Of a stretch of 64,000 nt of DNA, positions 1-64,000 are shown one piece after another. Positions within the stretch are counted from its first letter, which is position 1; every line of letters starts with the position of its first letter. The stretch covers positions 9,946,137-10,010,136 of the forward strand of contig OY970235.1 of NCBI GenBank assembly GCA_963714145.1, read 5' to 3'. The DNA is from an uncultured Actinomycetota bacterium (GTDB lineage Bacteria > Actinomycetota > Actinomycetes > Mycobacteriales > CADCTP01). The notes under the pieces are model-generated. The model ran no database searches. It was not told where the DNA came from and was given only the letters and a program-made list of their open reading frames with translations. The translations under genes were made by a program, and so were the position numbers.

Positions 1-545
1 CCGGGGCAGATCGCGTTCACCCGGATCCCCTGGCCGGCATAGTCGGCGGCGATCGACTTGGTCAGCCCGACCAGCGCGAACTTGCTCGCGGTGTAGGCGG
101 CCCGGTCGCGGATCGCCACCACCCCGGCTACCGAGGCGATGTTCACGATGATGCCGCCGCCGCGTGCCAGCATCCCGGGCAGCACCGCCTTGCAGGAATG
201 GAACGCCGCCCGCACGTTCACCGCGAAGATCCGGTCCCAGTCCACAGTGGACGTCGTCAGCAGCGGCTCGGCCACCCCGACGCCGGCCACGTTGCAGAGC
301 ACGTCGATCGGGCCCAGCGCGGCCTCGACGGCCGGTACGACGCGGTCGAACGCGTCGGCCGGTACGACGTCCGCGACGATCGCGGTGGCCGGCGTGCCGG
401 CGGCGGTCAGCTCCTCGACCGTGGCGGCCAGGCCGGCCGGGTCGATGTCGACGCCGGCGATCGCGTGCCCGTCGGCGGCCAGCCGGCGGGCGATGCTGCG
501 GCCGATGCCGGATGCGGCGCCGGTGACGACGACGACCTTGCCCAT
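1..545 (-). CDS. SDR family NAD(P)-dependent oxidoreductase (3' end runs off the window)
   Basis: Not in the ORF track; read manually from ATG at 545: MGKVVVVTGAASGIG...NVAG...NIASVAG...YTASK, i.e. TGxxxGIG, NxAG and YxxxK SDR motifs. Confidence 0.9.
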   Translation of the reverse strand, partial: MGKVVVVTGAASGIGRSIARRLAADGHAIAGVDIDPAGLAATVEELTAAGTPATAIVADVVPADAFDRVVPAVEAALGPIDVLCNVAGVGVAEPLLTTSTVDWDRIFAVNVRAAFHSCKAVLPGMLARGGGIIVNIASVAGVVAIRDRAAYTASKFALVGLTKSIAADYAGQGIRVNAICP

Positions 546-562
546 GGCAGCCTCCTCGGCGG

Positions 563-1015
563 TCAGCGCGGGCGCTTCTCGACCAGGTACAGGTGCACCA
601 GCGCGATCACCGTATCGCCGTCCTGGTTGGTCGCGGTCACCTGTTCCTCCAGGTACCCGAACTCGGCCGGCCTGCTGCGGTGGTCGCGCTTGCCGGTTGT
701 CTCGGCCCGGACGGTGATCGTGTCGCCGATGTGGACCGGCCGGATGAAGCGCACCCTGTCGTAGCCGTAGCTGATCGAGCGCGGGTTGATGTCGCCGGCG
801 GTCATCCCGACCGCGACCGACATGACCAGCGTGCCGTGGGCGATCCGGCGGCCGAACGGCTGGCTGGCGCACCAGTGCGCGTCCATGTGGTGCGGGAACA
901 GGTCGCCGGTCTGGCCGGCGTGCAGCACCACGTCCGCCTCGGTGATCGTCCGGCCGGTGCTGGTGCGGACCAGGCCGATCTCGATGTCCTCGAAGAACCG
1001 TTCGTCCACCTTCAC
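563..1015 (-). CDS. MaoC-family (hotdog-fold) acyl-CoA dehydratase
   Basis: [20 protein letters not shown]...IAHG motif; GTG start with AAAGAGG RBS. Confidence 0.88.
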
Positions 1016-1028
1016 CGATGTGCCTCTT

Positions 1029-2171
1029 TCACCGGGGTGCCTCCGCTCGGCCGGTCAGCGAGCCGGCGTACACGGCTTCCGCGCCGCGCAGGCAGGCCTC
1101 GATCGTCAGTTCGCCGGCCAGCACGGCGTTCACCAGCGTGCCGACGCGGTCCTGCACGTCCAGCCAGCCGGGGTAGCGGGGCCGCAGCCAGGCGCCGTCC
1201 AGCGTCCGGCGGGTGTTGCGGAAGAAGTCGAGGCTGTCCAGGTTGAGCGCGTCGTCCCGCCAGGCGGCGGCGTGCCCGGGTTGCCCACCGCAGGCGTAGT
1301 ACGGCCCGCGCTGCACTGTCTCGCTGGCCAGCCAGAACGCGTGTTCGACGGCCGCCCCGGCCTGAGTGGTGCGGGCCGGGACGGCGATGCCGGCACCACC
1401 GAGGCAGGAACCGGCCACCCCGGCCGCACCGGCCGGAATGTCCACATAGGCCAGACGATGTGGACGGAACCCGGCCCGGCTGTAGTTCGTGTAGCCGAAC
1501 GCCAGCGGGGCGTACCACCAGTCGTCGCGGGTGGACAGCCGCTCGGCGGTCTGGATCGGGTTCTCGGTCAGGCACCCGGCCGGGACGAGGGTGGCCAGCC
1601 GGCACATCAGGTCCAGCGCGGCGGCGCCGGCGTCCGGGTCGGCGAAGCCGCCACCGGCGGTGACCGGGGCGCCGGAGTTCGCGCACAGGGTGAGGAAGCT
1701 GGAGATCGCGTCCACCGGTTTCGCCGGCCAGAGCACCCGACCGGCCCGGGCCAGCTCGAGCACCTCGCCCCAGCCGGACGGTGGCTCGGCCAGCAGGTCG
1801 GGCCGGTACACGGCCACCTGCGCGGCGGTGTCGATGGCCAGCCCGTACTGGTGGCCGCCGTGCTGGTAGCTGCGGTGCGACAGCCCGACCGAGTTGGCCG
1901 CGAGGTCGGCCAGCTCGGCGTCGTGGCCGGTGCCGTCCAGCGGCAGCAGCAGGCCCTCGGCGTGCGCCACCGGGATGTGCGGGTGATCCAGCACCACCAG
2001 GTCGTACCCGGCGACCAGCGACTCCAGCGGCTGGTCGGCGAACCCCTGCAGGCTGCGCACGTCCCACTCCACCCGGCTGTCCGGGTGTTCCCGCCGCCAG
2101 GCCGCCGCGGCGCCCCGGACGCTGGCCAGGCCGCGCGGGTGATCCCAGGTGATGCCGCGCAGGACGGTCAT
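1029..2171 (-). CDS. Solute-binding protein family 1-like protein lacking a signal peptide
   Basis: C-terminal part of ORF 1029..3410; ATG at 2171 overlaps the upstream stop. [14 protein letters not shown]...LVVLDHPH...YAPLAFGY...GGAGIAV resembles SBP_bac_1. No hydrophobic leader or lipobox. Confidence 0.75.
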
Positions 2172-4794: not shown

Positions 4795-6017
4795 TGCGGG
4801 GCTACCCGCGCAGCGACGGCCGCAAGGGCATCCGCAACGTGATCGTGGTGGCCTACCTGGTCGAGTGCGCGCACCACGTGGCCGGCCGGATCGCGGCGGC
4901 GTTCGACGACGACGTGCAGGTGATCGGCTTCGGCGGCTGCTACCCGAACGACTACGCCGCGATGATGCTGCGCCGGCTGACCACGCACCCGAACGTCGGC
5001 GGTGCGCTGCTGGTCTCGCTCGGCTGCGAAGGCTTCGACCGGGCCGGGCTGGAGGCGGCGGTGCGAGCCACCGGCCGGCCGGTCGCGACCCTGGTGATCC
5101 AGCAGGAGCACGGCACCCGCAGCACGATCGAGCGCGGCCGGGCCTGGGTGGCCCAGGCCCGGGCCCAGCTGGACGCGCTCGAGCAGGTGCCGGTCGAGCT
5201 GTCCGACCTGGTGGTCGGCACGATCTGCGGCGGTTCGGACAGCACCAGCGGGATCACCGCGAACCCGGCGGTGGGGGTCGCGTTCGACCGGCTGGTCGCG
5301 GCCGGTGGCACCGCGATCTTCGAGGAGACCGGCGAGCTGATCGGCTGCGAGTACATGATGCGCGACCGCGCGATCACCCCGGAACTGGGCGCCGAACTGG
5401 TCGGCGCGGTGCAGAAGGCGGAGGCGTACTACACCACGCTCGGGCACGGCAGCTTCGCCCCGGGCAACGCCGAGGGCGGGCTGACCACCATCGAGGAGAA
5501 GTCGCTCGGCGCGTACAGCAAAAGCGGGAGCGCGCCGATCAGCGGGCTGCTCAAGCCGGGCGACCGGGCCCCCGCCCCGGGCCTGTACCTGCTCGACGTG
5601 GTGCCGGACGGGGAGGTCCGCTGGGGCTTCCCGAACATCAACGACAACGCCGAGGCGGCCGAGCTGATGGTCTGCGGTGCGCAGCTGATCCTGTTCACCA
5701 CCGGGCGCGGCTCGGTGGTCGGCTCGGCGATCTCGCCGCTGGTGAAGGTGTGTGCGAACCCGCAGACCTACCGGGCGATGGCCGAGGACATGGACGTCGA
5801 CGCCGGCGCGGTGCTGGAGGGGCGGTCCACTTTGGACCAGGTCGGTGCCGAGATCCTCGACCTGATCCGCCGGGTGGCGGCCGGCGAGCAGACCGCCAGC
5901 GAGGCGATGGGGCACCAGGAGTTCGTCCTGACCTACAAGGCTTTCGAGCCGGTCGGCCCGAGCTGTCTACCGCTGACCGTCCTTACCGGACCAGATACTT
6001 CCAGGAGCGCGACATGA
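4791..6017 (+). CDS. UxaA-family (altronate/galactarate-type) dehydratase, large subunit
   Basis: GYPRSDGRKGIRN, HPNVGGALLVSLGCE, CGGSDSTSGITANP, GNAEGGLTTIEEKSLG, FTTGRG. Confidence 0.92.
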   Translation: MMRGYPRSDGRKGIRNVIVVAYLVECAHHVAGRIAAAFDDDVQVIGFGGCYPNDYAAMMLRRLTTHPNVGGALLVSLGCEGFDRAGLEAAVRATGRPVATLVIQQEHGTRSTIERGRAWVAQARAQLDALEQVPVELSDLVVGTICGGSDSTSGITANPAVGVAFDRLVAAGGTAIFEETGELIGCEYMMRDRAITPELGAELVGAVQKAEAYYTTLGHGSFAPGNAEGGLTTIEEKSLGAYSKSGSAPISGLLKPGDRAPAPGLYLLDVVPDGEVRWGFPNINDNAEAAELMVCGAQLILFTTGRGSVVGSAISPLVKVCANPQTYRAMAEDMDVDAGAVLEGRSTLDQVGAEILDLIRRVAAGEQTASEAMGHQEFVLTYKAFEPVGPSCLPLTVLTGPDTSRSAT

Positions 6018-9349: not shown

Positions 9350-10383
9350 CGCTGCCGGCGCGGGTCGGCCCGCTCGGCCTGGGTTGCGCCCCGTTCGGCA
9401 ACCTCTACCGGGAGATCACCGACGAGCAGGCGGCCGAGACGTTCCGGACCGCCTGGGATCTCGGCGTGCGGCTGTTCGACGTGGCGCCGCACTACGGGCT
9501 CGGCCTGGCTGAGCGCCGGCTCGGCCGGCTGCTGACCGGCGTGCCGCGGGCGGACGTGATCGTCAGCACCAAGGTCGGCCGGCTGCTCGAACCGTACCCG
9601 GACGGGCGGGCCCGCCCGGACGCCGAGGGGTTCGCGGTGCGCTCGCCGCTGCGCCGGGTCCGCGACTACAGCGCCGACGGCGTGCGCCGCAGTGTCGAGT
9701 CCAGTTTGGACCGGCTCGGGCTGGATCGGCTGGACATAGCGCTGGTTCACGACCCGGACGAGCACGTCGAGCAGGCGTTGACCGGGGCGCTGCCGGCGCT
9801 GGCGCTACTGCGTGCCGAAGGCGTGGTCGGTGCGATCGGGGTCGGGATGAACCAGGTGGCCGGGCCCGAGCGGTTCGTCCGCGAGTCCGATGTGGACGTC
9901 CTGCTGGTGGCCGGCCGGTGGACGCTGCTGGACCGCAGCGCCGGCGCGACCCTGTTCCCGCTCTGCCAGCAGCGCGGGGTGAGCGTGCTGCTCGGCGGGG
10001 TGCTCAACTCCGGCCTGCTCGGCCAGGACCATCCGGACGGCTCGGCCACCTACGACTACCGGCCGGCGGCCCGGTCGGTGCTGGAGCGGGCGGCCGCGTT
10101 CGCCGCCGCCAGCCGCCGGCACGGCCTGCCGCTGGCCCGGGCCGCGACCGCGTTCGCCGCCCGGCATCCGGCGGTGACCTCCGTCCTGATCGGAGCGCGC
10201 ACGCCGGACGAGGTGCGGGCCGCGCACACCGCGCTGACCGAGCCGATCCCGGCCCGGATACTGGACGACATCGCCGCCGCACGGCCGGCCGACCCAGCCG
10301 CTGCGCGGCCGGGCGACCAGGCCGGCCCGCGGCCGGGTGACAGCGCCGCCGATGACCGGGCCGCCGCGCGGCCGGACGACTGA
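9346..10383 (+). CDS. Aldo/keto reductase (D-threo-aldose / L-fucose dehydrogenase-like)
   Basis: ATG 9346 overlaps the upstream stop; LGLGCAPFGNL, FDVAPHYGLGLAE, STKVGRLL, SLDRLGLDRLDIALVHDPD. Confidence 0.88.
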   Translation: MTLPARVGPLGLGCAPFGNLYREITDEQAAETFRTAWDLGVRLFDVAPHYGLGLAERRLGRLLTGVPRADVIVSTKVGRLLEPYPDGRARPDAEGFAVRSPLRRVRDYSADGVRRSVESSLDRLGLDRLDIALVHDPDEHVEQALTGALPALALLRAEGVVGAIGVGMNQVAGPERFVRESDVDVLLVAGRWTLLDRSAGATLFPLCQQRGVSVLLGGVLNSGLLGQDHPDGSATYDYRPAARSVLERAAAFAAASRRHGLPLARAATAFAARHPAVTSVLIGARTPDEVRAAHTALTEPIPARILDDIAAARPADPAAARPGDQAGPRPGDSAADDRAAARPDD

Positions 10384-11244: not shown

Positions 11245-12972
<1,728 letters not shown>

Positions 12973-14862: not shown

Positions 14863-16384
14863 GGTACGCGCGCCGCCGCCGGCCTGGGTGCCGGACCAGG
14901 TGAAGGTCGCGGTCGTCTTGGTCGGCAGGTTGTACGCGAACGACTGGCCGCCCCAGTTCACCCGAACCGTCTGCGCGCTGCCGGTGTCGTTGTAGGCGAC
15001 CAGTGCCTTGGAGCCGTCCGGGTTGATCCAGGCCACGTTCGGCACGCTGGTGTTCGCGGTGGAGGCGATCCGGAACGCGCCGGGCTTGACGAACTTCGTC
15101 AGGTGGCCCATCGAGTAGTACTCGATCGTGTAGTCGACCTGCCCGCTCCGGCCGTCTCCATTGTGGACGGTGATCAGGCCGGTGCAGGTGCCGCAGCCGC
15201 CGTCGTGCGGGCCCATGTTCTGGTCCACCGCGAGGCTCCACTTGGTCACCGTGCGGCCCCAGTTGCGGGTGTAGTCGACGATGTTGCGCATGTCCTCCTG
15301 CTGCTGGTTGACGATCCAGGTGCCGCCGGAGTGCTCGGTGTCGAACGCGCTCACCGCCGGGAACTGGTTGTGGATCGTCGTCTGCAGCGCGACGTCACCG
15401 CCGTAGCCGTGCCAGGCGATGCCGCCGAACAGCGGGTCGTTGCGCAGCGCGGCGTCGTTCAGCGGAACCGAGCCGAAGTCGTCGTAGTTGCTCCAGTTCC
15501 AGTCCAGCACGAGTACCTTGGTGTTGATCCCGGCGGCCCGGAACGCCGGCAGCAGGTTGCTGCGCAGGAAGAAGTCCAGCCCGTTGCCGTTCCAGTTCAT
15601 CGACGCGTAGCCGGCGCAGCAGGTCGGCTCGTTCTGCGGGGAGACGTAGTCGATCGGCACCCCCTGGGCCTGGTACGCCTGGATGTACTTGACGAAGTAC
15701 TGGGCGTACGCGGGGTAGTACTGCGACTCGAGCCAGCCGCCGACGACGTTGTCGTTGTCCTTCATCCACGGCGGCGCGCTCCACGGCACCGCCATCACCT
15801 TGAGGTTCGGGTTCAGCGACCGGGCCTGCTTGGTCAGCGGCAGCACGTCGGCCAGGTCGTGCGCAATGGAGAACCGGGCCAGGCCCGGGTCGGTCTGCCC
15901 GGCCGGCATGTCGTCGTAGGAGTAGTTGAACCGGGCCAGGTCGGACGAGCCCATCGGGTTGCGCAGCCAGGCCAGGCCGATGCCGGCGGTCGGGCTGAAC
16001 AGCTTGGTCATGGTGTCGTTGCGGGTGGCCGCCGACAGCGCGCCGCTGCTGTTCATCAGCCAGGCGGCGGTGTCGGTGAACGAGGCACCGGCACCGATGA
16101 ACTGCTGGTAGCGGGTGTTCTCGTCGACGCTGATGTTCTGGCCGCTGCCGCCGGTACCCGCGCTGAACGCGATCGGCGCCTGCTGCTGCAGGCCGCGGGT
16201 GACGTGCCGGCCGGCGGCGTCGTCGGTGCGTGGTGAGCCAGATGTTGACCGTCTCGCCGGCGGCGCCCGCCGGCGCCGGTTGCACGATCAGCAGGCCGGC
16301 CGCGCCCAGCAGGGCGGCGGCTCCGGCCGCGGCGAGCGGGCGCGTCCGGGGTCTGCCGCGTGGGGACGCGAAGGACAAGGCCAT
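14482..16384 (-). pseudogene. GH30 (beta-1,6-glucanase/glucosylceramidase-like) + ricin-B; one extra base near 16228 splits the frame (pseudogene or sequencing error)
   Basis: MALSF... signal peptide to GETVNIWLTT in one frame; ACC ACG [C] ACC GAC GAC rejoins the frame with YQQFIGAGASFTD...PQNEP...FDTEHSGG of ORF 14482..16056. Confidence 0.85.
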
Positions 16385-17137: not shown

Positions 17138-17893
17138 ATGGGCGGGGTGAGCGTCGAGCCGGTGACGGTGACCGCGACCCGCCCGGTGCGGCCGCCGTTG
17201 CTGGTGCAGCGCTGGCACGATCTGGCCTTCCTGCACTGGCCGGCGCCGCCCGCGGTGGTCGCGCCGTTCCTGCCGGCCGGCACCCGGCCGGACACGCTGG
17301 ACGGGGTCACCTACATCGGGCTGATCGGGTTCCGGATGGTCCGGCTCGGGCTGCTGGCCGGGCCCGGCCTGCCCTACCTGGGCACGTTCTGCGAGACGAA
17401 CGTCCGGCTGTACTCGGTGGACCGGGCCGGCCGGCGCGGCGTGGTGTTCCTGTCCCTGGACGCGTCCCGGCTGCTGCCGGTGCTGGTGGCGCAGGCCAGC
17501 CTGCGGCTGCCGTACCGGTGGGCGCGGATGCGGCTGGACGTCGACGGGCCGGTCTTCCGGTACACCGCCCGGCGCCGCCGGGGCACCCGGCCGACCAACC
17601 GGATGGCGGTCCGGGCCGGCGCCCCGATCGCCGCGCCGAGCCCACTGGAACACTTCGTCACCGCCCGCTGGGGCCTGCACGTCCGGGCGTACGGCCGCAC
17701 CCGGTACCTGCCGAACGTCCATCCACAGTGGACGCTGCACCGGGCGGAACTGCTCGACCTGGACGACCGGTTGGTGGCCGCCACCGGCCTGCCGGCCCCC
17801 GCGGGCGCGCCGGCCAGCGTGCTCTACTCGCCCGGCGTGCCGGTCCGCTTCGGCCGCCCGATCAGTGTCGACCGGGAAGGATCAGCATCGTGA
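17138..17893 (+). CDS. YqjF / DUF2071 family protein
   Basis: QRWHDLAFLHW, FCETNVRLYS, GVVFLSLDA, FVTARWGL, HPQW. Confidence 0.85.
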   Translation: MGGVSVEPVTVTATRPVRPPLLVQRWHDLAFLHWPAPPAVVAPFLPAGTRPDTLDGVTYIGLIGFRMVRLGLLAGPGLPYLGTFCETNVRLYSVDRAGRRGVVFLSLDASRLLPVLVAQASLRLPYRWARMRLDVDGPVFRYTARRRRGTRPTNRMAVRAGAPIAAPSPLEHFVTARWGLHVRAYGRTRYLPNVHPQWTLHRAELLDLDDRLVAATGLPAPAGAPASVLYSPGVPVRFGRPISVDREGSAS

Positions 17894-19903: not shown

Positions 19904-19940
19904 TCCACTCCGGACGTCCACAGTGGACGTCCGGAGTGGA
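19904..19940. terminator. Perfect 37-bp palindrome (18-1-18) between convergent genes, centred on TCCACAGTGGA
   Basis: TCCACTCCGGACGTCCAC-A-GTGGACGTCCGGAGTGGA; no U-tract, so terminator function is inferred only. Confidence 0.6.
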
Positions 19941-19975
19941 CGCCTGGCGGTGGAACCGGCGGGCGGCCGCGGCGG

Positions 19976-39970: not shown

Positions 39971-39983
39971 CCGTCCACAGTGG

Positions 39984-40583: not shown

Positions 40584-40591
40584 GCCTCAAC

Positions 40592-41155: not shown

Positions 41156-41227
41156 CCCGCCCCCCACCGTCCACAGCGGACCGTGCCGGCAGGGTAGGCC
41201 GGGCCGCCGCCCCGGGGCGAGCGGGTT

Positions 41228-42233: not shown

Positions 42234-44495
42234 ATGGGAAAGCGACGCGGAAGCCGCGAGAAGCGGTTCGACCGCTCCAACTGGGCCAGCCTCGTCCCGT
42301 TCGGGATCGGCGAGCAGAAGCCGAACAACTACCTCGAGCTGTACAAGGCCGCCCGGGACAACCGCGATCAGCTCGGCTACGCCTGGCGGATCCTGCGCGA
42401 GGGCACCTGCGACGGCTGCGCGCTGGGCACCACCGGCCTGCGCGACTGGACGATGGACGAGGTCCACCTGTGCAACATCCGGCTGCGCCTGCTCCGGCTG
42501 AACACGATGCCGGCGCTGGACCCGGCCCTGCTGGTGGACGCGGCCGCGCTGGTCGGCAAGCGCGAATCGGAGCTGCGCGAGCTCGGCCGGATCCCGTTCC
42601 CGATGGTGCGCCGGCGCGGTGATCCGGGGTTCCACGAGGTCTCCTGGGACGAGGCGCTGGACCTCACCGCGAGCCGGGTGGCCGGCACCGCGCCGGGCCG
42701 GCTCGGCTTCTACCTGACCAGCCGGGGGATGCCGAACGAGAACTACTTCGCGGCCAGCAAGGCGGTCCGCGCGATTGGCACGAACTCGATCGACAACGCC
42801 GCCCGGGTCTGCCACTCGCCGAGCACGTTCGGGCTCAAGGGTGCGCTCGGGGTGGCCGCGACGACCTGCTCGTACACCGACTGGATCGGCTCGGATCTGG
42901 TCGTGTTCGTCGGCTCCAACGTGGCGAACAACCAGCCGGTCGCGATGAAGTACCTCTACCACGCGAAGAAGGCCGGCACCAAGGTCGCGGTCATCAACAG
43001 CTACCGCGAGCCCGGCATGGAGCGGTACTGGGTGCCGTCCAATGTGGAGAGTGCGGTCTTCGGCACCAAGGTGACCGACCGGTTCTTCGCCGTGAACACC
43101 GGCGGCGACATCGGTTTCCTGAACGGCGTGCTCAAGCACCTGCTGGCCGAGGGCTGGGTGGACGAGCGGTTCATCGCCGAGCACACCACCGGGTTCGATG
43201 AGCTGGCCGCCGCGCTGGCCGAGCAGAGCTGGGAGCGGCTGGAGGCGCTGTCCGGAGCGTCCACTTCGGACATGCGGGAGATGGCCGAACTGATCGCGGG
43301 CGCCCGCACCGCGGTGTTCGTCTGGAGCATGGGCATCACCCAGCACGAGTTCGGTGAGGACAACGTCCGGGCGATCATCAACCTGGCCCTGTCCAAGGGT
43401 TTCGTCGGCCGGGACAAGTGCGGGCTGATGCCGATCCGCGGCCACTCCGGCGTGCAGGGCGGCGCCGAGATGGGCGCGTACTCGACCGTGCTGCCCGGCG
43501 GGGTGCCGATCGACGCGGCTTCGGTGGCCCGGTTCGAGCAGCTGTGGGGGTTCCCGATCCCGGCGCAGCGCGGGATGACCGCACCGGAGATGATCGACGC
43601 GGCGCACGACAACAGCCTGGACGTGCTGGTCTCGGTCGGCGGCAACTTCCTGGACGTGCTGCCCGACCCGAAGTACTGCAAGCAGGCGCTGCAGCGCATC
43701 CCGCTGCGGGTGCACATGGACCTCTGCGTGTCCAAGCAGATGCTGGTGGACCCGGCCGACACGGTGCTGCTGCTGCCCGCGCAGACCCGGTACGAGCTGG
43801 TCGGCGGCTGCACCGAGACCACCACCGAGCGGCGGATCATCTTCAGCCCGGAGGTGGCCGGCCCGCGGATCCCGGGGGCCCGGCCGGAGTGGTGGGTGTT
43901 CGGCGAGCTGGCCGCCCGGGTCAGGCCGGAACTGGCCGCGGCGGTGCGCTATCCCGGCACGCCGGAGATCCGCGCGGACATCGCCCGCGCGGTGCCGGCG
44001 TACGCGGGCATCCAGCATCTGGCCAAGCAGGGTGACAACTTCCAGTACGGCGGCAGCCATCTGTGTTTCGGCTGGCAGTTCCCCACCCCGGACGGCAAGG
44101 CCCACTTCTCCGCGCTGACGCCGCCGGACACCGAGCGCCCGGACGGCACCTTCATGGTCGCGACCCGGCGCGGCAAGCAGTTCAACAGCATGGTGTACGA
44201 GCACCGGGACGCGCTCACCGGCGCGGAGCGGGACGCGGTGCTGATGAACAAGCTGGACGCCGCCCGGCTCGACCTCGCCGACGGCGACCGGGTGCGGCTG
44301 ACCAGCCCGGTCGGCTCGTACCAGGGCACCGTCCGGCTGGCCGCGGTGACCCCGGGGAACCTGCAGGTGCACTGGCCGGAGGGCAACGTGCTGATCGACC
44401 GGACCCGGCGCTCGCCGCAGGCCGGGATCCCCGACTACAACGCGGTCGTCACGGTCGAGCGGGTGACCACGCCGAGCGCACCGGCCCGGGTGTGA
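42234..44495 (+). CDS. FdhF/YdeP-family molybdopterin oxidoreductase (Cys ligand)
   Basis: CDGCALGT...HLC, YLTSRG..NE, NSIDNAARVCHSPS, PIRGHSGVQG, RGKQFNSM. Confidence 0.92.
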   Translation: MGKRRGSREKRFDRSNWASLVPFGIGEQKPNNYLELYKAARDNRDQLGYAWRILREGTCDGCALGTTGLRDWTMDEVHLCNIRLRLLRLNTMPALDPALLVDAAALVGKRESELRELGRIPFPMVRRRGDPGFHEVSWDEALDLTASRVAGTAPGRLGFYLTSRGMPNENYFAASKAVRAIGTNSIDNAARVCHSPSTFGLKGALGVAATTCSYTDWIGSDLVVFVGSNVANNQPVAMKYLYHAKKAGTKVAVINSYREPGMERYWVPSNVESAVFGTKVTDRFFAVNTGGDIGFLNGVLKHLLAEGWVDERFIAEHTTGFDELAAALAEQSWERLEALSGASTSDMREMAELIAGARTAVFVWSMGITQHEFGEDNVRAIINLALSKGFVGRDKCGLMPIRGHSGVQGGAEMGAYSTVLPGGVPIDAASVARFEQLWGFPIPAQRGMTAPEMIDAAHDNSLDVLVSVGGNFLDVLPDPKYCKQALQRIPLRVHMDLCVSKQMLVDPADTVLLLPAQTRYELVGGCTETTTERRIIFSPEVAGPRIPGARPEWWVFGELAARVRPELAAAVRYPGTPEIRADIARAVPAYAGIQHLAKQGDNFQYGGSHLCFGWQFPTPDGKAHFSALTPPDTERPDGTFMVATRRGKQFNSMVYEHRDALTGAERDAVLMNKLDAARLDLADGDRVRLTSPVGSYQGTVRLAAVTPGNLQVHWPEGNVLIDRTRRSPQAGIPDYNAVVTVERVTTPSAPARV

Positions 44496-44500
44496 GCCCG

Positions 44501-45442
44501 ATGCGGGACCGGCCGGGCAGCACCGCCCGCGGTCGGGTGCGCAGCCTCGACGGCGACCGCGAGGTACTGCGCCGGGACACCCTCGCCGTGGAGGAACCGC
44601 TGGAGATCCGGCTTGCCGCCGGCGGAGCCGGCCGGGCCGGGGCGGCCGGCCCGGCCGGGACACGCGGCCGGGCGGGGTCGGCCGGCGGAGCCGGGGCGGC
44701 CGGTGGCCGCACCGAGACCGTCGCGATCACCATGCGGACCCCGGGCAACGACTTCGAACTGGCCGCCGGATTCCTCTCCGGCGAGGGGATCGTCGGGCCC
44801 GGCTCGATCCGCCGGATCGGGTACTGCGAGGACCCGGAACTGGATATCGAGCAGCGGTACAACGTGGTGACCGTGACACTGGCCGCCGACACGCTGCCCG
44901 ACCTGCGCGGGTTGGAGCGGCACTTCTACACCTCCAGTGCGTGCGGGGTGTGCGGGAAGGCCAGCCTGGAGGCGCTGGCCCTGCGCGGCTGCGGGCCGCT
45001 ACCGCCAGGCGGTCCGCAGCTCACCCCGGACACGCTCTACCAGCTACCCGAGACGCTGCGGGCGGCGCAGAACGTCTTCGACTCCACCGGCGGCCTGCAC
45101 GCCGCCGGTCTGTTCACTGTGGACGGACGGTTGCTGGCCGCGCGGGAGGACGTCGGCCGGCACAACGCGGTGGACAAGCTGGTCGGCTGGGCGCTGCTGT
45201 CCGGCCGGCTCCCTGGCTCGGACCTGGTCCTGCTGGTCAGCGGGCGGGCCAGCTACGAGATCGTGCAGAAGGCATTGGCGGCCGGGATTCCGGTGATCGG
45301 CGCGGTGTCCGCGCCGTCCAGTCTCGCGGTCGCGGTGGCCGAGGAGTTCGGCCTGACCCTGGTCGGGTTCCTGCGGGGGCGGCGATGCAACGTGTACGCC
45401 GACAGCGGGCGGATCGTGCTGCCGGCGGCCGTCACCTCATGA
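44501..45442 (+). CDS. fdhD: Formate dehydrogenase accessory sulfurtransferase
   Basis: EEPLEIR, MRTPG.DFELAAGFL, SACGVCGK, TGGLHAAG, REDVGRHNAVDK, SAPSSLAV. Confidence 0.93.
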   Translation: MRDRPGSTARGRVRSLDGDREVLRRDTLAVEEPLEIRLAAGGAGRAGAAGPAGTRGRAGSAGGAGAAGGRTETVAITMRTPGNDFELAAGFLSGEGIVGPGSIRRIGYCEDPELDIEQRYNVVTVTLAADTLPDLRGLERHFYTSSACGVCGKASLEALALRGCGPLPPGGPQLTPDTLYQLPETLRAAQNVFDSTGGLHAAGLFTVDGRLLAAREDVGRHNAVDKLVGWALLSGRLPGSDLVLLVSGRASYEIVQKALAAGIPVIGAVSAPSSLAVAVAEEFGLTLVGFLRGRRCNVYADSGRIVLPAAVTS

Positions 45443-45455
45443 GGAGGAGCGCGAG

Positions 45456-46754
45456 ATGGTCGCACCGTCAAGCTCCGACACCGGGCAGCCGATCCGAGGC
45501 AGATGGGGGATCGCCGCCGCGGCGGTGATCTTCCAGCTCGCTCTCGGCGCGGTCTACGCGTGGAGCGTGTTCGCCAGCGAGCTGAAGAAGCAGAACGCTT
45601 TCGCGCTCACCAAGACCGAGGCGGCGCTGCCGTTCTCGGTGACGATCGGCATGATCTTCCTCGGCACCTATGTCGGCGGCCGGATCCAGGATCGGCGCGG
45701 GCCGCGCACGGTCGCGCTCACCGGCGGCGTGGTCTACTCGATCGGCATCCTGCTGGCCGCCGCGGCCAGCGGCAAGGACCAGCTCTGGCTGCTGATCCTC
45801 GGCTACGGCGTGATCGCCGGGTTCGGCCTCGGCCTCGGCTACATCGTGCCGATCGCGATGCTGCAGAAGTGGTTCCCGGACAAGCGCGGGCTGATCACCG
45901 GGATCGCGGTCGGCGGCTTCGGGCTCGGCGCGTTCGTCACCTCGCCGGTCGCGCAGCAGCTGGTCGAGGGCACCCGGGTGCCGACCCGGGCGTTCCTGCC
46001 GCTGGGCATCGCCTACCTGGTAATGACCGTCGCCGGCGCCTGGTTCTTCCGCAACCCGCCGGCCGGCTACGCCGTCCCCGGCTGGACGCCGCGGGTCACC
46101 GGTCGGGTCATCGACAGCAGCCGCGACTACACCCAGGGCGAGGCGCTGCGCACCCCGCAGTGGTACCTGCTGACCGGGATCCTGGCGCTGAACGTGACCG
46201 CCGGCATCGGGCTGATCTCGGTCGCCAAGGACGCCGCGATCGACGTCGGCGGGTACTCGTCCGCCGCCGCCGGCACGCTGGTCGGCGCGCTGGCCCTGTT
46301 CAACGGTGGCGGCCGGATCTTCTTCGGCTGGATCTCCGACCGGATCGGCCGGATGCCGGCGTTCCTGGCCATGCTGGGGCTGCAGGCGATCTGCTTCCTG
46401 ATCCTGCCGCACGCCTCCTCGATGGCCCTGTTCGCGGTGCTGGCCGCGGTCATCTACCTCTGCTACGGCGGCGGCTTCGGCACGATGCCGGCCACCGCGG
46501 GCGACTTCTTCGGGCTGCGCAACGCCGGCGCCATCTACGGCCTGATGATCGTGGCCTGGAGCGCCGGTGGCGTGCTCGGCCCGCTGCTGGTCGCCGCGCT
46601 GATCGACGGCAAGGTCTACACCACCGCGTTCACGGTCGTCGCCGTCATCGCGATCGCCGCCCTGGTGTTGCCGCTGATCACCCGCCCGCCGGCCGGCCAC
46701 GCGCTGGCCACGAAGCCGGCCGATGCGGAGGAGCCCAGCACCGCCCCGGCCTGA
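45456..46754 (+). CDS. OFA-family MFS transporter (oxalate/formate antiporter-like)
   Basis: LGAVYAWSVF, KWFPDKRGLITG.AV.GFG, FNGGGR.FFG.ISD.IGR, YGGGFG.MPA. Confidence 0.9.
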   Translation: MVAPSSSDTGQPIRGRWGIAAAAVIFQLALGAVYAWSVFASELKKQNAFALTKTEAALPFSVTIGMIFLGTYVGGRIQDRRGPRTVALTGGVVYSIGILLAAAASGKDQLWLLILGYGVIAGFGLGLGYIVPIAMLQKWFPDKRGLITGIAVGGFGLGAFVTSPVAQQLVEGTRVPTRAFLPLGIAYLVMTVAGAWFFRNPPAGYAVPGWTPRVTGRVIDSSRDYTQGEALRTPQWYLLTGILALNVTAGIGLISVAKDAAIDVGGYSSAAAGTLVGALALFNGGGRIFFGWISDRIGRMPAFLAMLGLQAICFLILPHASSMALFAVLAAVIYLCYGGGFGTMPATAGDFFGLRNAGAIYGLMIVAWSAGGVLGPLLVAALIDGKVYTTAFTVVAVIAIAALVLPLITRPPAGHALATKPADAEEPSTAPA

Positions 46755-46918
46755 CCCCGATCGCGGCGCGAGCCGCGGTCAGCCCATCGCGCGAGCAGTT
46801 CCGGCCGGGCGGGAGCACGGACCGCTCCCGCCCGGGGCGACTGCGCACTCGGGACGCGGGTTGCTCCTTCGGGCGGTGGCGGACGCTTCGGCCGGCGCCG
46901 AACCGTCCGGGTCCTAGG

Positions 46919-47980
46919 GTGGACGCTGTGCGGATACAGGTACCCCGGCCGGCGGACCGGCTGCTGCCGGTGCTGGCGGCGCTGGTGACGGTGCTGTTCT
47001 GGGCGTCCGCGTTCGTGGCGATCCGGCACGTCCGGGCAGACTTCACCGCCGGGCCGCTCGCGCTGGGCCGGCTGCTGACCGGCAGCCTGGTGCTCGGTGT
47101 GGTGGCGCTGCCGCGCCGCCGCCGCTGGCCGGACCGTCGCGAGTGGACGCTGCTGGTGGTCTGCGGGCTGGCCTGGTTCGGCGTCTACAACGTGGCGCTG
47201 AACGCGGCCGAGCGCCGGGTGGACGCGGGCACCGCCGCGATGCTGGTCAACGTCGGCCCGATCCTGCTCGCGGTGCTGGCCGGTGTGCTGCTGAAGGAGG
47301 GTTTCCCGTCCCGGCTGCTGGCCGGCTTCGCGGTCGCGTTCGCCGGGGTGCTGGTGATCGGGCTGGCCACCTCGACCCGGGCCGGCGCGGACGGCACCGG
47401 CGTGCTGCTCTGCCTGCTCGCCGCGGTCGGCTACGCGATCGGCGTGGTGGCGCAGAAGCCGCTGCTGGCCGGCCTGCCGGCGCTGCAGGTGACCTGGCTG
47501 GCCTGCACCATCGGCATGATCGGCACGCTGCCCTACGCGCCGGCGCTGGTGCACGAGATCGGCGCGGCCCGGCCGTCCGCCATCGGCTGGGTGGTCTACC
47601 TCGGCGCGCTGCCGACGGCCCTGGCGTTCAGCACCTGGGCGTACGCGCTCTCGCACACCACTGCCGGCCGGCTCGGCGCCACCACGTACCTGGTGCCGCC
47701 GCTGGCCGTCCTGCTCGGCTGGCTGGTGCTGGCCGAGACGCCGGCCCCGCTCGCCCTGGCCGGCGGCGCACTCTGCCTGGCCGGCGTGGTTCTCGCCCGC
47801 AGCCGGCGCCGGCAGCCCGCCGCACCAGCATCCGGCCCAGCCGTTGCCGCCGGTCACGTCGGCCCGGCCGACCCAGCCGACCCGGCCCGTCCGCCCGGCC
47901 CAGTCGGCCCAGCCGGTCAGGTCGGCCCGGCCGGGCCGGTTGATCCGCCGGCAGTGCCGGTTCCGGCGGCCCGGCGATGA
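46919..47980 (+). CDS. EamA/DMT-family transporter
   Basis: GTG 46919; FWASAFVAIR, AAML, AFSTW.YAL, YLVP; about 10 TM helices. Confidence 0.88.
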   Translation: MDAVRIQVPRPADRLLPVLAALVTVLFWASAFVAIRHVRADFTAGPLALGRLLTGSLVLGVVALPRRRRWPDRREWTLLVVCGLAWFGVYNVALNAAERRVDAGTAAMLVNVGPILLAVLAGVLLKEGFPSRLLAGFAVAFAGVLVIGLATSTRAGADGTGVLLCLLAAVGYAIGVVAQKPLLAGLPALQVTWLACTIGMIGTLPYAPALVHEIGAARPSAIGWVVYLGALPTALAFSTWAYALSHTTAGRLGATTYLVPPLAVLLGWLVLAETPAPLALAGGALCLAGVVLARSRRRQPAAPASGPAVAAGHVGPADPADPARPPGPVGPAGQVGPAGPVDPPAVPVPAARR

Positions 47981-48711
47981 CCGAACCGGCCACTGTGGAC
48001 GGCGCCGCGCTGGCCCAGGTCGCCGCGCTGCTCGCGGACCGGACCCGGGCCAGCATCTGCCTGGCCCTGCTGGACGGGCGGGCCTGGACCGCGGGCGAGT
48101 TGGCCCGGCTGGCCGGGGTCACCCCGGCGACCGCCAGCGAGCAGCTGAACCGGCTGGTGGCCGGCGGCCTGCTGGCCGAGGTACGGCAGGGCCGGCACCG
48201 GTACCTGCGGCTGGCCGGGCCGCGGGTGGCGCAGCTGGTGGAAGACCTGTCCAGCTACCCCGCGCCGGGGCCGCCGCCGCCGTCGCTGCGCGGCTCCAGC
48301 AGCCGGGCCGCGCTGGTGGCCGCCCGCACCTGCTACGACCACCTGGCCGGCCGGCTCGGCGTCGGCCTGCTGGCCGCGATGACCTCGCGGGGCCTGTTCG
48401 ACCAGTCCGCCGGCGCGGCGCTGACCCCGGCCGGGCTGGGTTGGCTGGCCGGGCTCGGCATCGAGCTGCCCGAACCCGCGGCCGGGCGCAGGCCGGTGGT
48501 CCGGCTCTGTCTGGATTGGACGGAGCGCCGGCCGCACCTGGCCGGGGCGGCCGGGGCGGCGCTGTGCGCGCGGTTCCTGGCCGCCGGCTGGATCGAGCGG
48601 ACCACCCGGCACCGGGCGATCCGGGTCACCCCGGCCGGTGAGCGGGCGCTGGCCGAGCACCTCGGCCTGGATGCCCCCGGGCTGACCAGCACCCTGCCGG
48701 CCACCGGGTAG
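47977..48711 (+). CDS. ArsR-type winged-helix regulator with a C-terminal extension
   Basis: LADRTRA.I.LALLDGRAWTAGELA...SEQL..L; ARTCYDHLAGRLG; CLDWTERRPHLAG. Confidence 0.88.
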   Translation: MTEPATVDGAALAQVAALLADRTRASICLALLDGRAWTAGELARLAGVTPATASEQLNRLVAGGLLAEVRQGRHRYLRLAGPRVAQLVEDLSSYPAPGPPPPSLRGSSSRAALVAARTCYDHLAGRLGVGLLAAMTSRGLFDQSAGAALTPAGLGWLAGLGIELPEPAAGRRPVVRLCLDWTERRPHLAGAAGAALCARFLAAGWIERTTRHRAIRVTPAGERALAEHLGLDAPGLTSTLPATG

Positions 48712-55439: not shown

Positions 55440-55457
55440 CACGACAAGGCGGACTCC

Positions 55458-56981: not shown

Positions 56982-56983
56982 TG

Positions 56984-57322: not shown

Positions 57323-58192
57323 CTAATCCGCGTCCACTGTGGATAGCGGGCCGGCACGGCTGGCCCGCCAGCGGCCGAGCGCGCCGTAGCGCGGGGCGAG
57401 CAGCCAGGAGAGGGCGAAGCAGGCGCAGGCAACCAGCACGATGGCGGCACCGGCGGCGACGTTCTGCAGCTGGGAGATGGTCAGCCCGGCAGCGCCGGCG
57501 AACACGCCGAGGCCGACGGCGATGGCGGTCATCCGGCCCAGCCGGTCTGTCCACAGGCGAGCGGTGGCGGCCGGCGCGACGATCAGCGCGACCGAGAGGA
57601 TCGTGCCGACCGCCGGCACTGCGGCGACCACGGTGGCCTCGATCAGCAGCAGCAGCACGACATCCAGCAGGCCGGCCGGGTAGCCGAGCGCGACCAACGC
57701 GCCCCGGTCGAACGCGCCCAGGATCAGCTCCTTGCCGACCGCGACCAGCACCAGCACCACCACGACCAGCACCCCGGCGGTGGCCACGATGTCGGCCCGG
57801 TCGACCGTGAGCACCGAACCGACCAGGTAGCTGGACAGGTCCCGGGTGAAACCGGCCTGGGCCGACAGCAGCGTGACCCCCAACGCGAACCCGGCGGCCA
57901 GCACCACCCCGATCACGCTGGTCTCCTCGGCGCCCGGCCGAGACCACAGCCAGGCCACCGCCAGCACCGCGAGCACGCCGAAGATGCCGGTGCCCAGCAG
58001 CAGGTTCACCCCCAGCAGCGCGGCCAGCACCACGCCGGGGAAGGTGGCGTGCGTCATCGCCTGGGTGAAGAACGCCAGCCGGCGCAGCACCACGTGCACG
58101 CCGACCAGCCCGGCCAGCGCGCCGACCAGCACCGCCTCCAGCAATGCCCGGCGGGAGAAGGCATCCGAGAACAGCGGCGCGGCCACGCTCAT
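57323..58192 (-). CDS. Metal (Zn/Mn) ABC transporter permease
   Basis: VLRRLAFFTQAMTHA.FPG, SYLVGSVL, AVGTILSVALIVAPAATA. Confidence 0.9.
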   Translation of the reverse strand: MSVAAPLFSDAFSRRALLEAVLVGALAGLVGVHVVLRRLAFFTQAMTHATFPGVVLAALLGVNLLLGTGIFGVLAVLAVAWLWSRPGAEETSVIGVVLAAGFALGVTLLSAQAGFTRDLSSYLVGSVLTVDRADIVATAGVLVVVVLVLVAVGKELILGAFDRGALVALGYPAGLLDVVLLLLIEATVVAAVPAVGTILSVALIVAPAATARLWTDRLGRMTAIAVGLGVFAGAAGLTISQLQNVAAGAAIVLVACACFALSWLLAPRYGALGRWRASRAGPLSTVDAD

Positions 58193-62071: not shown

Positions 62072-62141
62072 GGTTCGCCTCCTCGCTCGCTCCGCGCCTC
62101 GGCGCCCCAGACGGCACCTCGATGCTCACTCGCTCGTCGGC

Positions 62142-63299
62142 TCACCACCGCGCCAGCACGTTCGCGTCGATGTGGGCGAAGTCGAACTCGTCGCCGAGCC
62201 CGGGCCGGGTGGGCATCGCCACCCGGCCCTGCGCGTCCATCGCGTCCACCTGGGACAGCAGATGCGGGGGCAGCTCGTCGTAGTCCACCAGCGGGTGCAG
62301 CAGGCCGCGCTCGTACCAGCGCCCGTTGCTGCTGGCGCCGAGCACGGCCAGGTTGCCGGAGCCGCCGCCGTGCACTTCGCAGTCCATCCCGAACGCCTCG
62401 GCCAGGTGCATCGCCTTGAGCGTCGGCCCGATGCCGCCGACATCGGTGACGCCGGCGCGCAGGATGTCGCAGCCGCCGGCGGCCACCCACTCGGCCCGGC
62501 TCAGGTGCTTGCCCCAGGACGTCTCCGGCCCGATCACCGGCACCGCGAGCTGGTCGGCCAGCCACCGGTACGACTGCACCGAGGCCTCTTCCATCGGCTC
62601 CTCGAACCAGTAGTAGTCCAGCTCGTCCAGGGCCCGGCCGAGCCGGAGCGCGTCGGTGCGGCTGTACCAGTGGTACGCGTCCAGCATCAGCGCGATGTCC
62701 GGCCCGACCGCGTCCCGGACGGCGGTGCAGGCGGCGATGTCGAGGTCCACGTTCGCACCGCCGCGGGCCGGTGGCATCCAGGTGTGCAGTTTGATCGCCC
62801 GGTAGCCCAGTTCGACCAGCTGCTTGCCGAACGCCGCGTAGTCGGCCGGGGTGGCCAACCCGCCGGGGATCTCGTCCCCGCACATCGTGCTCGCGTACGC
62901 CGGGATGCTCGGTCGCGCACCGCCGAGCATCAGCCAGACCGGCAGCCCGGCCACCCGGCCGGCGAGGTCGGCCAGAGCCAGCTCGACGTAGCTGAGCGCG
63001 CGGTCGGTGAGCAGCCCGTGCGCGCCGCGCTGGCGGTGCGCCAGCCGGTTCCACAGCAGCTCCCGGTGCAGCGGGTCGGCGCCCAACAGCACCGGCCGGA
63101 CGTGGCCGGCCAGCACCCACTCGCGCAGGTGCTCCGGATGCGCCAGGCAGTAGCCGGCCGCGCCGTCGGAATCGGTGATGGTCAGCAGCGCCTCGCGGAC
63201 GTCGTGGAGCTGGCCGGGGTGGCGGTGCCCGGCACTGTCCACTTCGGTCCTCGCGGTGCTCCGGAAGACCGTGACGGTGACCTGCTCGATGGTGGCCAT
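62142..63299 (-). CDS. Mandelate racemase / muconate-lactonizing (enolase superfamily) acid-sugar dehydratase
   Basis: AIKLH, LMLDA, WFEEP, GPE, GGIG...H, EVHGG, RPGLG. Confidence 0.9.
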   Translation of the reverse strand: MATIEQVTVTVFRSTARTEVDSAGHRHPGQLHDVREALLTITDSDGAAGYCLAHPEHLREWVLAGHVRPVLLGADPLHRELLWNRLAHRQRGAHGLLTDRALSYVELALADLAGRVAGLPVWLMLGGARPSIPAYASTMCGDEIPGGLATPADYAAFGKQLVELGYRAIKLHTWMPPARGGANVDLDIAACTAVRDAVGPDIALMLDAYHWYSRTDALRLGRALDELDYYWFEEPMEEASVQSYRWLADQLAVPVIGPETSWGKHLSRAEWVAAGGCDILRAGVTDVGGIGPTLKAMHLAEAFGMDCEVHGGGSGNLAVLGASSNGRWYERGLLHPLVDYDELPPHLLSQVDAMDAQGRVAMPTRPGLGDEFDFAHIDANVLARW

Positions 63300-63309
63300 G
63301 GCGGTCAGC

Positions 63310-64000
63310 TCACTTGTGCCGCTTGTCCCACTCCGCCTGGGCGCCGGTCAGCTTGTCGCCCAGTTGCTTGACGAAGTCGGCCGCCGACAGCTGGCCGAGC
63401 AGCACCTTCTGGTACAGCGGCTCGCTGTCCGCCTTGGTGATCGCGGAGTACTGCGGCAGGTACACCGGTGCCTCGACGATCGTGGTCGCCGGGTTGCGGA
63501 CCAGGGCCAGCGCGTCCTTCACCGCCGCGTTCTGCCCGATCCAGGCCTCGCTCTCGACCTCGGAGTTGGCCGGAATCTGGCCGACCTTCTCGTTCCAGTA
63601 GCTGTTGCTCTCCTTGGAGACCAGGAACTCGGCGAACTTCCAGGCCGCGTCCTTGTGCTTGCTGGCCTTGAACACGGCGAACCCGTCCACCGGGTTGGCG
63701 ACCACGGTCGACTTGCTGCCATCCGTCGAGGGCAGCGGCACCGCGGCCACCTTGTCCCCGAACGCCTTCTTCACGTCCGACGAGGAGCCCAGGTTGTGAT
63801 GCATCATCGCGACCGAGCCGCTGGTGAACTCGGCCACCATCTGCGGGTAGCCGTTGTTCACGTCGGCGGCCGGGGTGGCCTTCTTGAACAGCTTGGACAT
63901 CCGGTCCACCAGCTCGGCGTTCTTCGGTGTGTCCACAGTGGACTTGCTGGCGTCGAAGAACCCGGTCTGGCCGGAGTAGGCGTACATCTCGGCGAGCAGT
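63310..64000 (-). CDS. Carbohydrate ABC transporter substrate-binding protein (5' part beyond the window)
   Basis: F.SG.VAMM.H, DGFAVFKASKHKDAAWKFAEFL; the frame is open to the window edge. Confidence 0.85.
   Translation of the reverse strand, partial: LLAEMYAYSGQTGFFDASKSTVDTPKNAELVDRMSKLFKKATPAADVNNGYPQMVAEFTSGSVAMMHHNLGSSSDVKKAFGDKVAAVPLPSTDGSKSTVVANPVDGFAVFKASKHKDAAWKFAEFLVSKESNSYWNEKVGQIPANSEVESEAWIGQNAAVKDALALVRNPATTIVEAPVYLPQYSAITKADSEPLYQKVLLGQLSAADFVKQLGDKLTGAQAEWDKRHK

Follow-up and report, generated by a model that had tools for sequence, protein, structure and literature searches.

A hyper-abundant 13-bp palindrome in an actinomycete genome and its relatives, with features of a possible lineage-specific DNA tag

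Introduction

The closest described analogue of the element reported here is the highly iterated palindrome HIP1 (GCGATCGC) of cyanobacteria, a short palindrome that is 15-300-fold over-represented, lies inside open reading frames (ORFs) as well as in the stretches separating them, is conserved, and is present lineage-wide with exceptional losses (PMC5861425). No peptide, RNA or gene-regulatory role has been found for HIP1, which was earlier ascribed to nucleoid structure on the basis of its conservation and periodicity (PMC5861425). Recent work ties it to transformation efficiency and to the transfer machinery. Here we describe an actinomycete element, the palindrome GTCCAC-W-GTGGAC (GTCCACWGTGGAC; W is A or T), whose inner 11-mer TCCACWGTGGA was noticed in a preliminary description of a 64,000-nucleotide stretch (C1:9946137-10010136, hereafter the window) from an uncultured member of the Mycobacteriales.

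Two further groups of sites bear on this element. The matS sites of MatP, the NBS sites of Noc, the SBS sites of SlmA and the OB sites of KorB are 12-16-bp palindromes read by dimers, with matS and OB being 13 bp long around a central base. To our knowledge, such sites are not forced into coding DNA against codon or amino-acid preference. The uptake signal sequences (USS) of Pasteurellaceae and the DNA uptake sequences (DUS) of Neisseriaceae, on the other hand, are enriched as inverted pairs at the 3' ends of genes and are thought to accumulate by molecular drive. They are over-represented 9-12-mers, mostly genic in their cheapest reading frames, and they distort the proteome (Findlay & Redfield 2009, PMC2817400).

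Results

Genome-wide enrichment and anatomy of the palindrome

The source genome (G000) is a single contig of 10,076,357 bp, and its computed GC content of 73.4% agrees with the roughly 73% assumed in the preliminary description. The perfect 11-mer is found 449 times in it, where Markov models of orders 0-4 expect 0.8-3 copies and a model of order 6 expects 30; the enrichment is thus about 150-550-fold, with one copy per 22 kb, and the word is indeed the genome-wide signature that the preliminary description had proposed from the window. When all words were compared with an order-4 model, the motif and its sub-words ranked first at k = 8, 9, 10 and 11. Since the flanks add a G at position -1 in 73% of the copies and a C at position +1 in 75%, the full element is the 13-bp GTCCAC-W-GTGGAC, with TCC-NN-W-GTGGA as its core. 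Counted as 13-mers, the sites with zero, one and two mismatches number 239, 717 and 1251, respectively, against 2, 4 and 126 for a reversed, non-complemented control; the total at two or fewer mismatches is 2,207, and the motif-derived sites number about 2,100, approximately one per 4.6 kb.

Within the window, all ten perfect 11-mers and all seven one-mismatch copies listed previously are real (Table 1). In dinucleotide-preserving shuffles of the window, perfect copies average 0.05 and never exceed one, and 29 sites lie within two mismatches of the 13-mer, where 2.3 are expected. The full G...C extension is present in five of the ten window copies. What the preliminary description had missed is the 13-bp length, a second half-site (GTCCGA/GTCCGG), the tandem arrays and the high density in convergent gaps.

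From the single-substitution counts, the CC positions (3 and 4) and the central W are the most constrained, whereas positions 1, 2 and 6 are more tolerant. The centre is A in 222 and T in 227 of the copies, and the 449 W-centred words compare with only 15 that have an S (G or C) centre. Variant half-sites are found in genic and intergenic DNA alike, as GTCCGA-W-GTGGAC (339, counted as 11-mers), GTCCGG-W (139) and TCCATT (116). The double-variant TCCGAWTCGGA occurs at only 8 sites, against about 64 expected with independent halves, a scarcity that fits a threshold on the total binding energy of a putative dimer. No compensatory changes between the arms were seen in any of the six arm pairs (positions 5/9 are A-T 239 times, G-C once, and C-G or T-A never), and the element is therefore read base by base and not as a hairpin. 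An RNA or single-stranded DNA hairpin was accordingly rejected: the top variants are wobble (G:T)-compatible, but compensatory pair changes are lacking, and no Rfam model matched at the gathering threshold across the whole window. A Chi- or KOPS-type polar motif was also ruled out, by the evenly divided centre and by the lack of any meaningful strand skew of the one-sided variants relative to replication (181 versus 158, 80 versus 59, and 75 versus 41, with the origin near 7.45 Mb and the terminus near 2.1 Mb from the GC skew).

The preliminary description had also likened each half to the actinomycete DnaA box, and the two halves (GTCCAC plus A) could be imagined as paired boxes (TTGTCCACA) that buffer free DnaA. 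The half-site does resemble the core of the box, and the sites are about 1.4-fold denser in the origin-proximal half of the chromosome. However, the one-sided variants show no preference for a box-completing centre base (172 A versus 167 T), the TT extension of TTGTCCACA is not enriched (T at position -2 in only 21%), and DnaA and its box are universal in the phylum, whereas most families lack the motif and G004, a member of the sister genus with motif-rich congeners, has lost it. Titration of DnaA, which leaves this patchy taxonomic range unexplained, is thus very improbable.

The pressure acts on DNA and reshapes proteins

The coding and intergenic figures are based on the output of a home-made GC-frame caller, which mapped 7,080 ORFs over 80% of the genome. 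About 78% of the sites are coding, roughly matching the coding share of the genome. In 74% of the coding copies the central W falls on a third codon position, so that TCC-ACW-GTG-GAC is read as S-T-V-D, while the variant half-site is read as S-[D/E]-V-D. Several codons concerned are rare in this genome: ACA plus ACT account for 3.8% of Thr codons, TTG 5.5% of CTG plus TTG, GAT 8.8% of Asp, GAA 14% of Glu and ATT 2% of Ile codons.

The consequence shows in the proteome. The tetrapeptide STVD is present 189 times where amino-acid composition predicts 29 (6.5-fold), which makes it the third most over-represented tetrapeptide, behind AAAA and the Walker motif GKST, and 81% of its occurrences are encoded as TCC ACW GTG GAY. 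Since STVD in other encodings stays at expectation (36 versus 29), it is the DNA word that makes the peptide and not the reverse. SEVD, SDVD and SIVD are each about 3-fold over-represented. Furthermore, in TCC-NN-?-GTGGA the centre is W-biased for every NN (W/S ratios of 0.8-29, versus 0.06-0.47 without the TCC), meaning that the pressure is graded and acts on partial matches too. The earlier proposal of a pressure at the DNA rather than the protein level, made from the codons of the window copies, is well supported by the W excess at the centre and by the rare ACW codons of STVD.

These data also dispose of the ordinary causes of a repeated word, namely the usage of codons or dipeptides, a frequent peptide, families of paralogous genes or a mobile repeat scattered over the genome. 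It is true that a single reading frame holds most of the coding copies, and that some two-mismatch matches are conserved peptide motifs of polyketide synthases (PKS) and nonribosomal peptide synthetases (NRPS); but the Markov expectations, including that of order 6, fall far short of the observed count, the excess of STVD stems from the DNA word, rare W-ending codons are used, and the intergenic density equals or exceeds the coding one. Similarity of flanks to those of another site was found for only 220 of the 2,207 sites, in paralogous PKS/NRPS modules and in one repetitive ORF, and with unique flanks at 90% of the sites a mobile element or repeat family is excluded as well. An ordinary cause is thus refuted.

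Sites are conserved and are still being gained

The same-genus genome G001 could be aligned to G000 over 439 kb at about 88% identity. Among the 33 G000 sites with at most one mismatch, 21 are the same in G001, as against 32% of control 13-mers (p = 2e-4), although the flanks of the conserved sites diverge more than those of control identical windows (8.4 versus 5.2 differences per 60 bp). The preliminary description had looked to conservation at synonymous positions in related genera, and against this congener such conservation is seen.

The differences between G000 and G001 are bimodal, with an excess of sites that carry four or more differences (7 of 42, versus 6%; p = 0.013). With the help of seven outgroup genomes, the motif-like state was found to be the derived one in all five resolvable differences, each of which involved 3-6 substitutions (Table 1). 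The gains include amino-acid changes as well as synonymous shifts to the rare codons AAT, TTG and ACT, and at one polarised position G009 shows an independent change of ACC CTG to ACT TTG. The differences between the two genomes cluster in the motif, and the possibility that whole patches are written in one event was considered and rejected; since the flanks of the events are not significantly cleaner than equally divergent control windows, stepwise substitution under a strong directional force suffices. Within the window, the site at 5825..5837 reads A-T-L-G versus S-T-L-D in the two genomes, and G000 uses the rare codons ACT and TTG there; no outgroup counterpart of this site was recovered.

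Methylation, uptake and candidate readers

A methyltransferase or repair site was among the suggestions of the preliminary description. In such a scheme, the palindrome would be a by-product of an orphan methyltransferase coupled to very-short-patch (VSP)-type or other biased repair, near-cognate sequences being turned into the motif. This scheme would suit a palindrome whose centre is CWG and a pressure graded on partial matches, and HIP1 is itself a target of two orphan methylases, DmtA and DmtC, which act on sub-sites within it (PMC4390886). The variant spectrum, however, is opposite to that predicted for a drive by VSP or deamination repair, since C-to-T changes, at each of the three C positions, head the list of single variants and are not depleted, and the gains comprise every kind of substitution, transversions included. 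A regex scan of the genome found no Vsr signature and a single C5-methyltransferase-like ORF (3433191-3434174, GGPPCQGFS) located in a prophage-like block, N6 and N4 enzymes being unresolved by such a scan. Nor is any internal sub-palindrome enriched alone, with only 14 copies of CCACWGTGG lacking both outer T/A flanks; unlike the case of HIP1, there is thus neither an enriched sub-palindrome nor, in the regex scan, a methylase for an internal sub-site. We consider an origin in methylation or repair unlikely.

For the uptake-type sequence that had also been suggested, the profiles of ComEC (PF03772) and T2SSF (PF00482) turned out to be uninformative and gave no support, since both are present in the motif-poor genomes G004, G016, G019, G026 and G050 and in motif-rich genomes alike. 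A site lies within 250 bp upstream of 54 genes, including those for response regulators, an ECF (extracytoplasmic function) sigma factor, ribosomal protein L22 and enzymes; no self-regulated reader gene stood out among these 54 by eye, no Pfam scan having been made. A literature search for the motif sequence returned unrelated matches only, with the string inside longer sequences in eukaryote and virus papers.

Chromosomal distribution and arrays

The density of perfect 13-mers depends strongly on gene orientation, being 82.9 per Mb in convergent gaps, 31 in tandem gaps, 22.7 in coding DNA and 14 in divergent gaps. The convergent-gap density is therefore 3.7 times that of coding DNA (Poisson p = 1.5e-5), while divergent promoter gaps are lower. 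Every 250-kb bin of the chromosome holds copies, yet at a finer scale the sites are strongly clumped: 292 of 1,007 10-kb bins are empty versus 112 expected, and there are deserts of 45-62 kb at normal GC. The dense 10-kb bins lie mostly in PKS/NRPS and lanthipeptide regions. Because the distribution is so over-dispersed, the window, with its 10 copies where the genome averages 2.85 per 64 kb, is no more than a patch of moderate density.

These distributions bear directly on a serious rival explanation, in which the palindromes are architectural sites for a protein that organises the chromosome or is associated with the nucleoid (in the manner of MatP at matS, Noc at NBS, SlmA at SBS, or Streptomyces Gbn) and are maintained by ordinary selection at each site. 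An odd-centred 13-bp palindrome suits a dimer, the sites cover the whole chromosome, and they are kept relative to the congener inside diverging flanks; by the same reasoning, Xu et al. 2018 arrived at a role of HIP1 in the nucleoid (PMC5861425). On the other hand, known systems of the matS, NBS, SBS and OB type have tens of sites, mostly in one chromosome region, whereas the actinomycete motif has about 2,200 genome-wide, and its presence in every 250-kb bin shows that it is not limited to a macrodomain as regional organising sites (matS, NBS, parS) are. Many of these sites are weak, and each would need a selection able to change amino acids and to impose codons with shares of 2-14%. The clumped distribution, moreover, is neither regional nor even, and the density is highest in the least constrained convergent gaps, as tolerance to a drive predicts. 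On balance, we regard an architectural role under per-site selection as possible but rather doubtful.

The sites also form arrays. Spacings of 13-16, 21, 24 and 27 bp far exceed the approximately 0.5 occurrences expected per distance, and neighbouring units in a cluster are either direct or inverted. Two perfect sites no more than 30 bp apart were found in 10 of 13 motif-rich genomes, and never for the control pattern. The genes beside intergenic arrays mostly present convergent 3' ends, with no recurrent neighbour. In three other genomes (G041:C24:5340; G038:C52:33048; and G027:C8:284376, from another family of the same order), TCCACWGTGGA-C-TCCACWGTGGA was found, which would read S-T-V-D-S-T-V-D. 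In G000, a 40-41-bp tandem repeat at C1:804139-804232, in a convergent gap, has three units that each contain a perfect GTCCACTGTGGAC, and a repetitive ORF at C1:1654940-1655320 has a period of about 72 bp, with a pair of motif-like words (V-S-T-V-D-P / V-S-I-V-D-S) in each unit that use the rare codons ACT and ATT.

Small palindromic units that form tandem or inverted arrays where genes end and in convergent gaps are also a feature of repetitive extragenic palindromes and bacterial interspersed mosaic elements (REP/BIME) and of miniature inverted-repeat transposable elements. The actinomycete motif differs from all of these in being mostly coding, in showing neither structure-preserving covariation nor conserved flanks, and in having a unit of only 13 bp.

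The preliminary description had raised depletion in horizontally acquired islands, and the motif is indeed thinner in low-GC DNA. The lowest-GC 5% of bins have half the mean motif density, and the island at 49.6-57.0 kb of the window, reported previously as motif-free, is indeed so: the region 49000-57000 has a GC of 0.64-0.71 and no site at two or fewer mismatches. It carries three large co-directional ORFs (about 1110, 792 and 507 amino acids) with almost no Pfam signal apart from one weak fn3 match, and is probably a horizontally acquired island. The prophage-like block at C1:3426615-3444398, with some 28 small same-strand ORFs, holds two one-mismatch sites, about the genome average.

Taxonomic range and clean loss

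The enrichment is shared with relatives. The perfect 11-mer occurs 324 times in the 7.3 Mb of G001 and 7-158 times in sister-genus genomes, with 7 copies in the 4.6 Mb of G004 and 50-158 in its congeners; in other families of the order, represented by one genome each, seven have 20-111 copies and eight have 0-4 (reversed control 0-3). The hisS gene finds its best matches, at 60-72% identity, in Salinispora, Frankia, Micromonosporaceae and Pseudonocardiaceae, and named genomes were reached through such loci. High counts were found in Amycolatopsis anabasis (364) and in metagenome-assembled genomes (MAGs) of Actinokineospora (266) and Actinophytocola (217), and a lower one in Saccharopolyspora cebuensis (26); Salinispora pacifica has 6 copies, the Pseudonocardia and Nocardiopsaceae MAGs one each, and the Frankia and Streptosporangiaceae MAGs none. 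A class-wide sample of 150 genomes has 0-4 copies almost everywhere and a maximum of 13, and the genomes from other orders of the class (about 145) nearly all have 0-4.

The loss in G004, and the absence from G019, a motif-free genome of the same order, are clean. In about 0.4 Mb sampled from each, the W/S ratio at the centre is at background (7:23 in G004 and 1:13 in G019), compared with 161:28 and 119:24 in 0.7 Mb each of G001 and G000, respectively. A scan for over-represented palindromes, which picks up the motif in the two larger samples, found no replacement palindrome in those of G004 and G019. The system is thus either present or absent, and its specificity has not drifted. In G019, a non-palindromic repeated word, GCGTGGATCAACTTC, was noticed with 10-13 copies in the 400 kb sampled.

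Features of the window and other repeats

The features of the window, together with the polarised gains elsewhere in the genomes, are listed in Table 1. On our gene map seven of the ten perfect copies fall in ORFs, rather than the six counted before, and the reading frames given in the preliminary description (S-T-V-D, D-P-Q-W and H-P-Q-W) are correct: S-T-V-D is read at 241, 57333, 62034 and 63932, and [D/H/A]-P-Q-W at 12711, 17722 and 26796. The remaining three (19917, 31546 and 31649) lie between convergent genes. The 37-bp palindrome around the copy at 19917 has a predicted hairpin of 17-18 bp with no U tail, and the 71-nt stretch around it has a folding energy of -45.5 kcal/mol; the middle unit is GTCCATTGTGGAC in G001.

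Two further repeated words were noticed in G000. The first, GACTGAGGCAAC, has 68 copies versus about 0.1-0.3 expected (C1:160967, 359285, 496263-496495 and about 65 other places) and sits in a longer conserved repeat, gcagcggcgtctgGACTGAGGCAACgcgccgacgaagtcg, which at 496 kb recurs in tandem every 116 bp; this is apparently a dispersed family of intergenic repeats that has no relation to the palindrome. The second, GTGACGGGTT, has 181 copies versus about 11 expected (C1:347177, 347217, 371096, 426126, 426167 and about 175 other places) and occurs in short arrays with a spacing of about 40 bp, in the context cgGTGACGGGTTcgtgcggcgggtgg.

Table 1. Motif sites of the window (window positions) and, in the last four rows, polarised gains (genome positions)
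Feature	Position	Strand	Context and reading	Comparison with G001 or remark
Perfect 13-mer GTCCACAGTGGAC	240..252		Minus-strand ORF; T-S-T-V-D-W	ACT codon
One-mismatch site GTCCACTTTGGAC (11-mer at 5826)	5825..5837			G001 has GGCCACGCTGGGC; four differences clustered inside 13 bp
Site GTCCAGTTTGGAC	9699..9711			G001 has GATCAGCCTGCGC; six differences in 13 bp, flanks near-identical
One-sided variant GTCCGATGTGGAC (second half-site)	9885..9897	+	Coding	Same in G001
One-sided variant GTCCGATGTGGAC	10499-10511 and 13040-13052			Both same in G001 despite diverged flanks
One-sided variant GTCCGGAGTGGAC	11923..11935	+		Same in G001
Perfect 11-mer; 13-mer ATCCACTGTGGAT	12711..12721		GH16/F5-F8 type C gene; D-P-Q-W-I	Same in G001
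Site CTCCATTGTGGAC (one-mismatch 11-mer at 15157)	15156..15168			Same in G001
Perfect 11-mer ATCCACAGTGGAC	17722..17732		DUF2071 gene; H-P-Q-W-T	Same in G001
37-bp perfect palindrome, three abutting units TCCACTCCGGAC / GTCCACAGTGGAC / GTCCGGAGTGGA	19905..19941		Convergent gap, 8 nt past hisS stop	
Perfect 11-mer CTCCACAGTGGAC	26796..26806		ORF assignment uncertain; would give A-P-Q-W-T	
Perfect 13-mer	31545..31557		Convergent gap 31506-31690	Extended right flank CGGACCTGGCC common to copy at 31648
Perfect 13-mer	31648..31660		Second copy in convergent gap 31506-31690	103 bp from copy at 31545
One-mismatch 11-mers at 39974 TCCACAGTGGT, 41170 TCCACAGCGGA, 43038 TCCAATGTGGA, 45113 TTCACTGTGGA and 47989 GCCACTGTGGA	within 39973..48000			
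One-sided variant, opposite orientation (GTCCACTTCGGAC on + strand)	43259..43271	-		
Perfect 11-mer GTCCACTGTGGAT	57333..57343		Last codons of minus-strand ORF; L-S-T-V-D-A	
Perfect 11-mer GTCCACTGTGGAA	62034..62044		Minus-strand ORF, near 5' end; G-S-T-V-D-G	
Perfect 13-mer	63931..63943		Minus-strand ORF; K-S-T-V-D-T	
G000 gain	419548		CACCGAGCTGGAC to GACCACATTGGAC	E to T, CTG to TTG
G000 gain	9661814			A to S, AAC to AAT
G000 gain	3041300			GCG to ACT (A to T), GCC to GCG
G001 gains	Orthologous to 7383401 and 10029585			

Discussion

We tentatively favour the reading that GTCCAC-W-GTGGAC may be recognised, on double-stranded DNA, by a factor specific to the lineage, making the palindrome a HIP1- or uptake-like self tag spread by molecular drive. 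The putative factor would be sequence-specific and probably a homodimer. A directional pressure on the DNA, one that overrides codon preference and changes amino acids, would create and maintain the copies one base at a time, presumably with motif-bearing DNA being favoured in some DNA transaction, be it exchange, recombination or maintenance. The motif would then accumulate wherever its cost is tolerable, that is, in the S-T-V-D frame, in S-[D/E]-V-D for the variant half-site, and at the 3' ends of genes. A drive seems to us a better explanation than per-site organismal selection because thousands of sites including weak partial matches are affected, because protein sequence is overridden, because large deserts exist at normal GC, and because the density peaks in the least constrained DNA.

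The preliminary description had compared the element with HIP1, and this remains a fair analogy: there is a genome-wide excess in ORFs and intergenic DNA, with conservation between relatives. Like HIP1, the palindrome is enriched some hundred-fold or more, is conserved (against G001) and has been lost in an individual lineage (G004). Unlike HIP1, it belongs to a different phylum, is longer (13 bp around an odd A/T centre, against 8 bp), is about 20-100 times sparser, and has a second allowed half-site. The same two readings, transfer and nucleoid structure, thus compete for the actinomycete palindrome as for HIP1. With USS and DUS it shares the excess of a peptide (STVD), the concentration of coding copies in one frame, the enrichment in convergent gaps and the ongoing gains. 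Unlike these asymmetric sequences, it is palindromic, has a density 5-20 times lower, and does not track the ComEC and pilus-platform genes.

Several points weigh against a self tag spread by drive. We know of no established natural transformation in these mycelial actinomycetes, the cognate factor was not found, and the occurrence of ComEC and T2SSF in motif-rich and motif-poor genomes alike lends no support to the uptake version, the known uptake sequences being, in addition, non-palindromic and denser. The excess of multi-substitution differences is only modestly significant and five events were polarised, while the coding and intergenic numbers depend on the home-made caller and the 80% of the genome that it covers. 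Between-species conservation is also predicted by per-site selection, as was argued by Xu et al. 2018 for HIP1 (PMC5861425).

More broadly, it is possible, although we would put it no higher than a speculative proposal, that the part of the order that includes the Pseudonocardiaceae and allied families has a new motif-writing system, composed of a dedicated dimeric protein with sequence specificity and a transfer, recombination or protection process that favours motif DNA, which would be the first self tag of the HIP1 or uptake kind in the Actinomycetota. Such a tag would rewrite hundreds of proteins, would be cleanly lost in some lineages, and could serve to make the introduction of genes into Amycolatopsis and its relatives more efficient.

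Should this reading be correct, hyper-abundant palindromes written into genomes would not be a cyanobacterial curiosity but a recurrent way in which lineages mark their own DNA, and the group with the motif includes major antibiotic producers such as Amycolatopsis. Whether such a motif is kept by selection or by drive, and what reads it, is a long-standing question, for which this system has several unusually good handles: the long, specific site suits pull-downs, the gains can be polarised with outgroups, and the motif-less congener suits comparative genomics. The motif density also flags foreign DNA at normal GC. Finally, motif copies added to vectors may offer a simple and testable route to better genetic tractability of the motif-rich strains.

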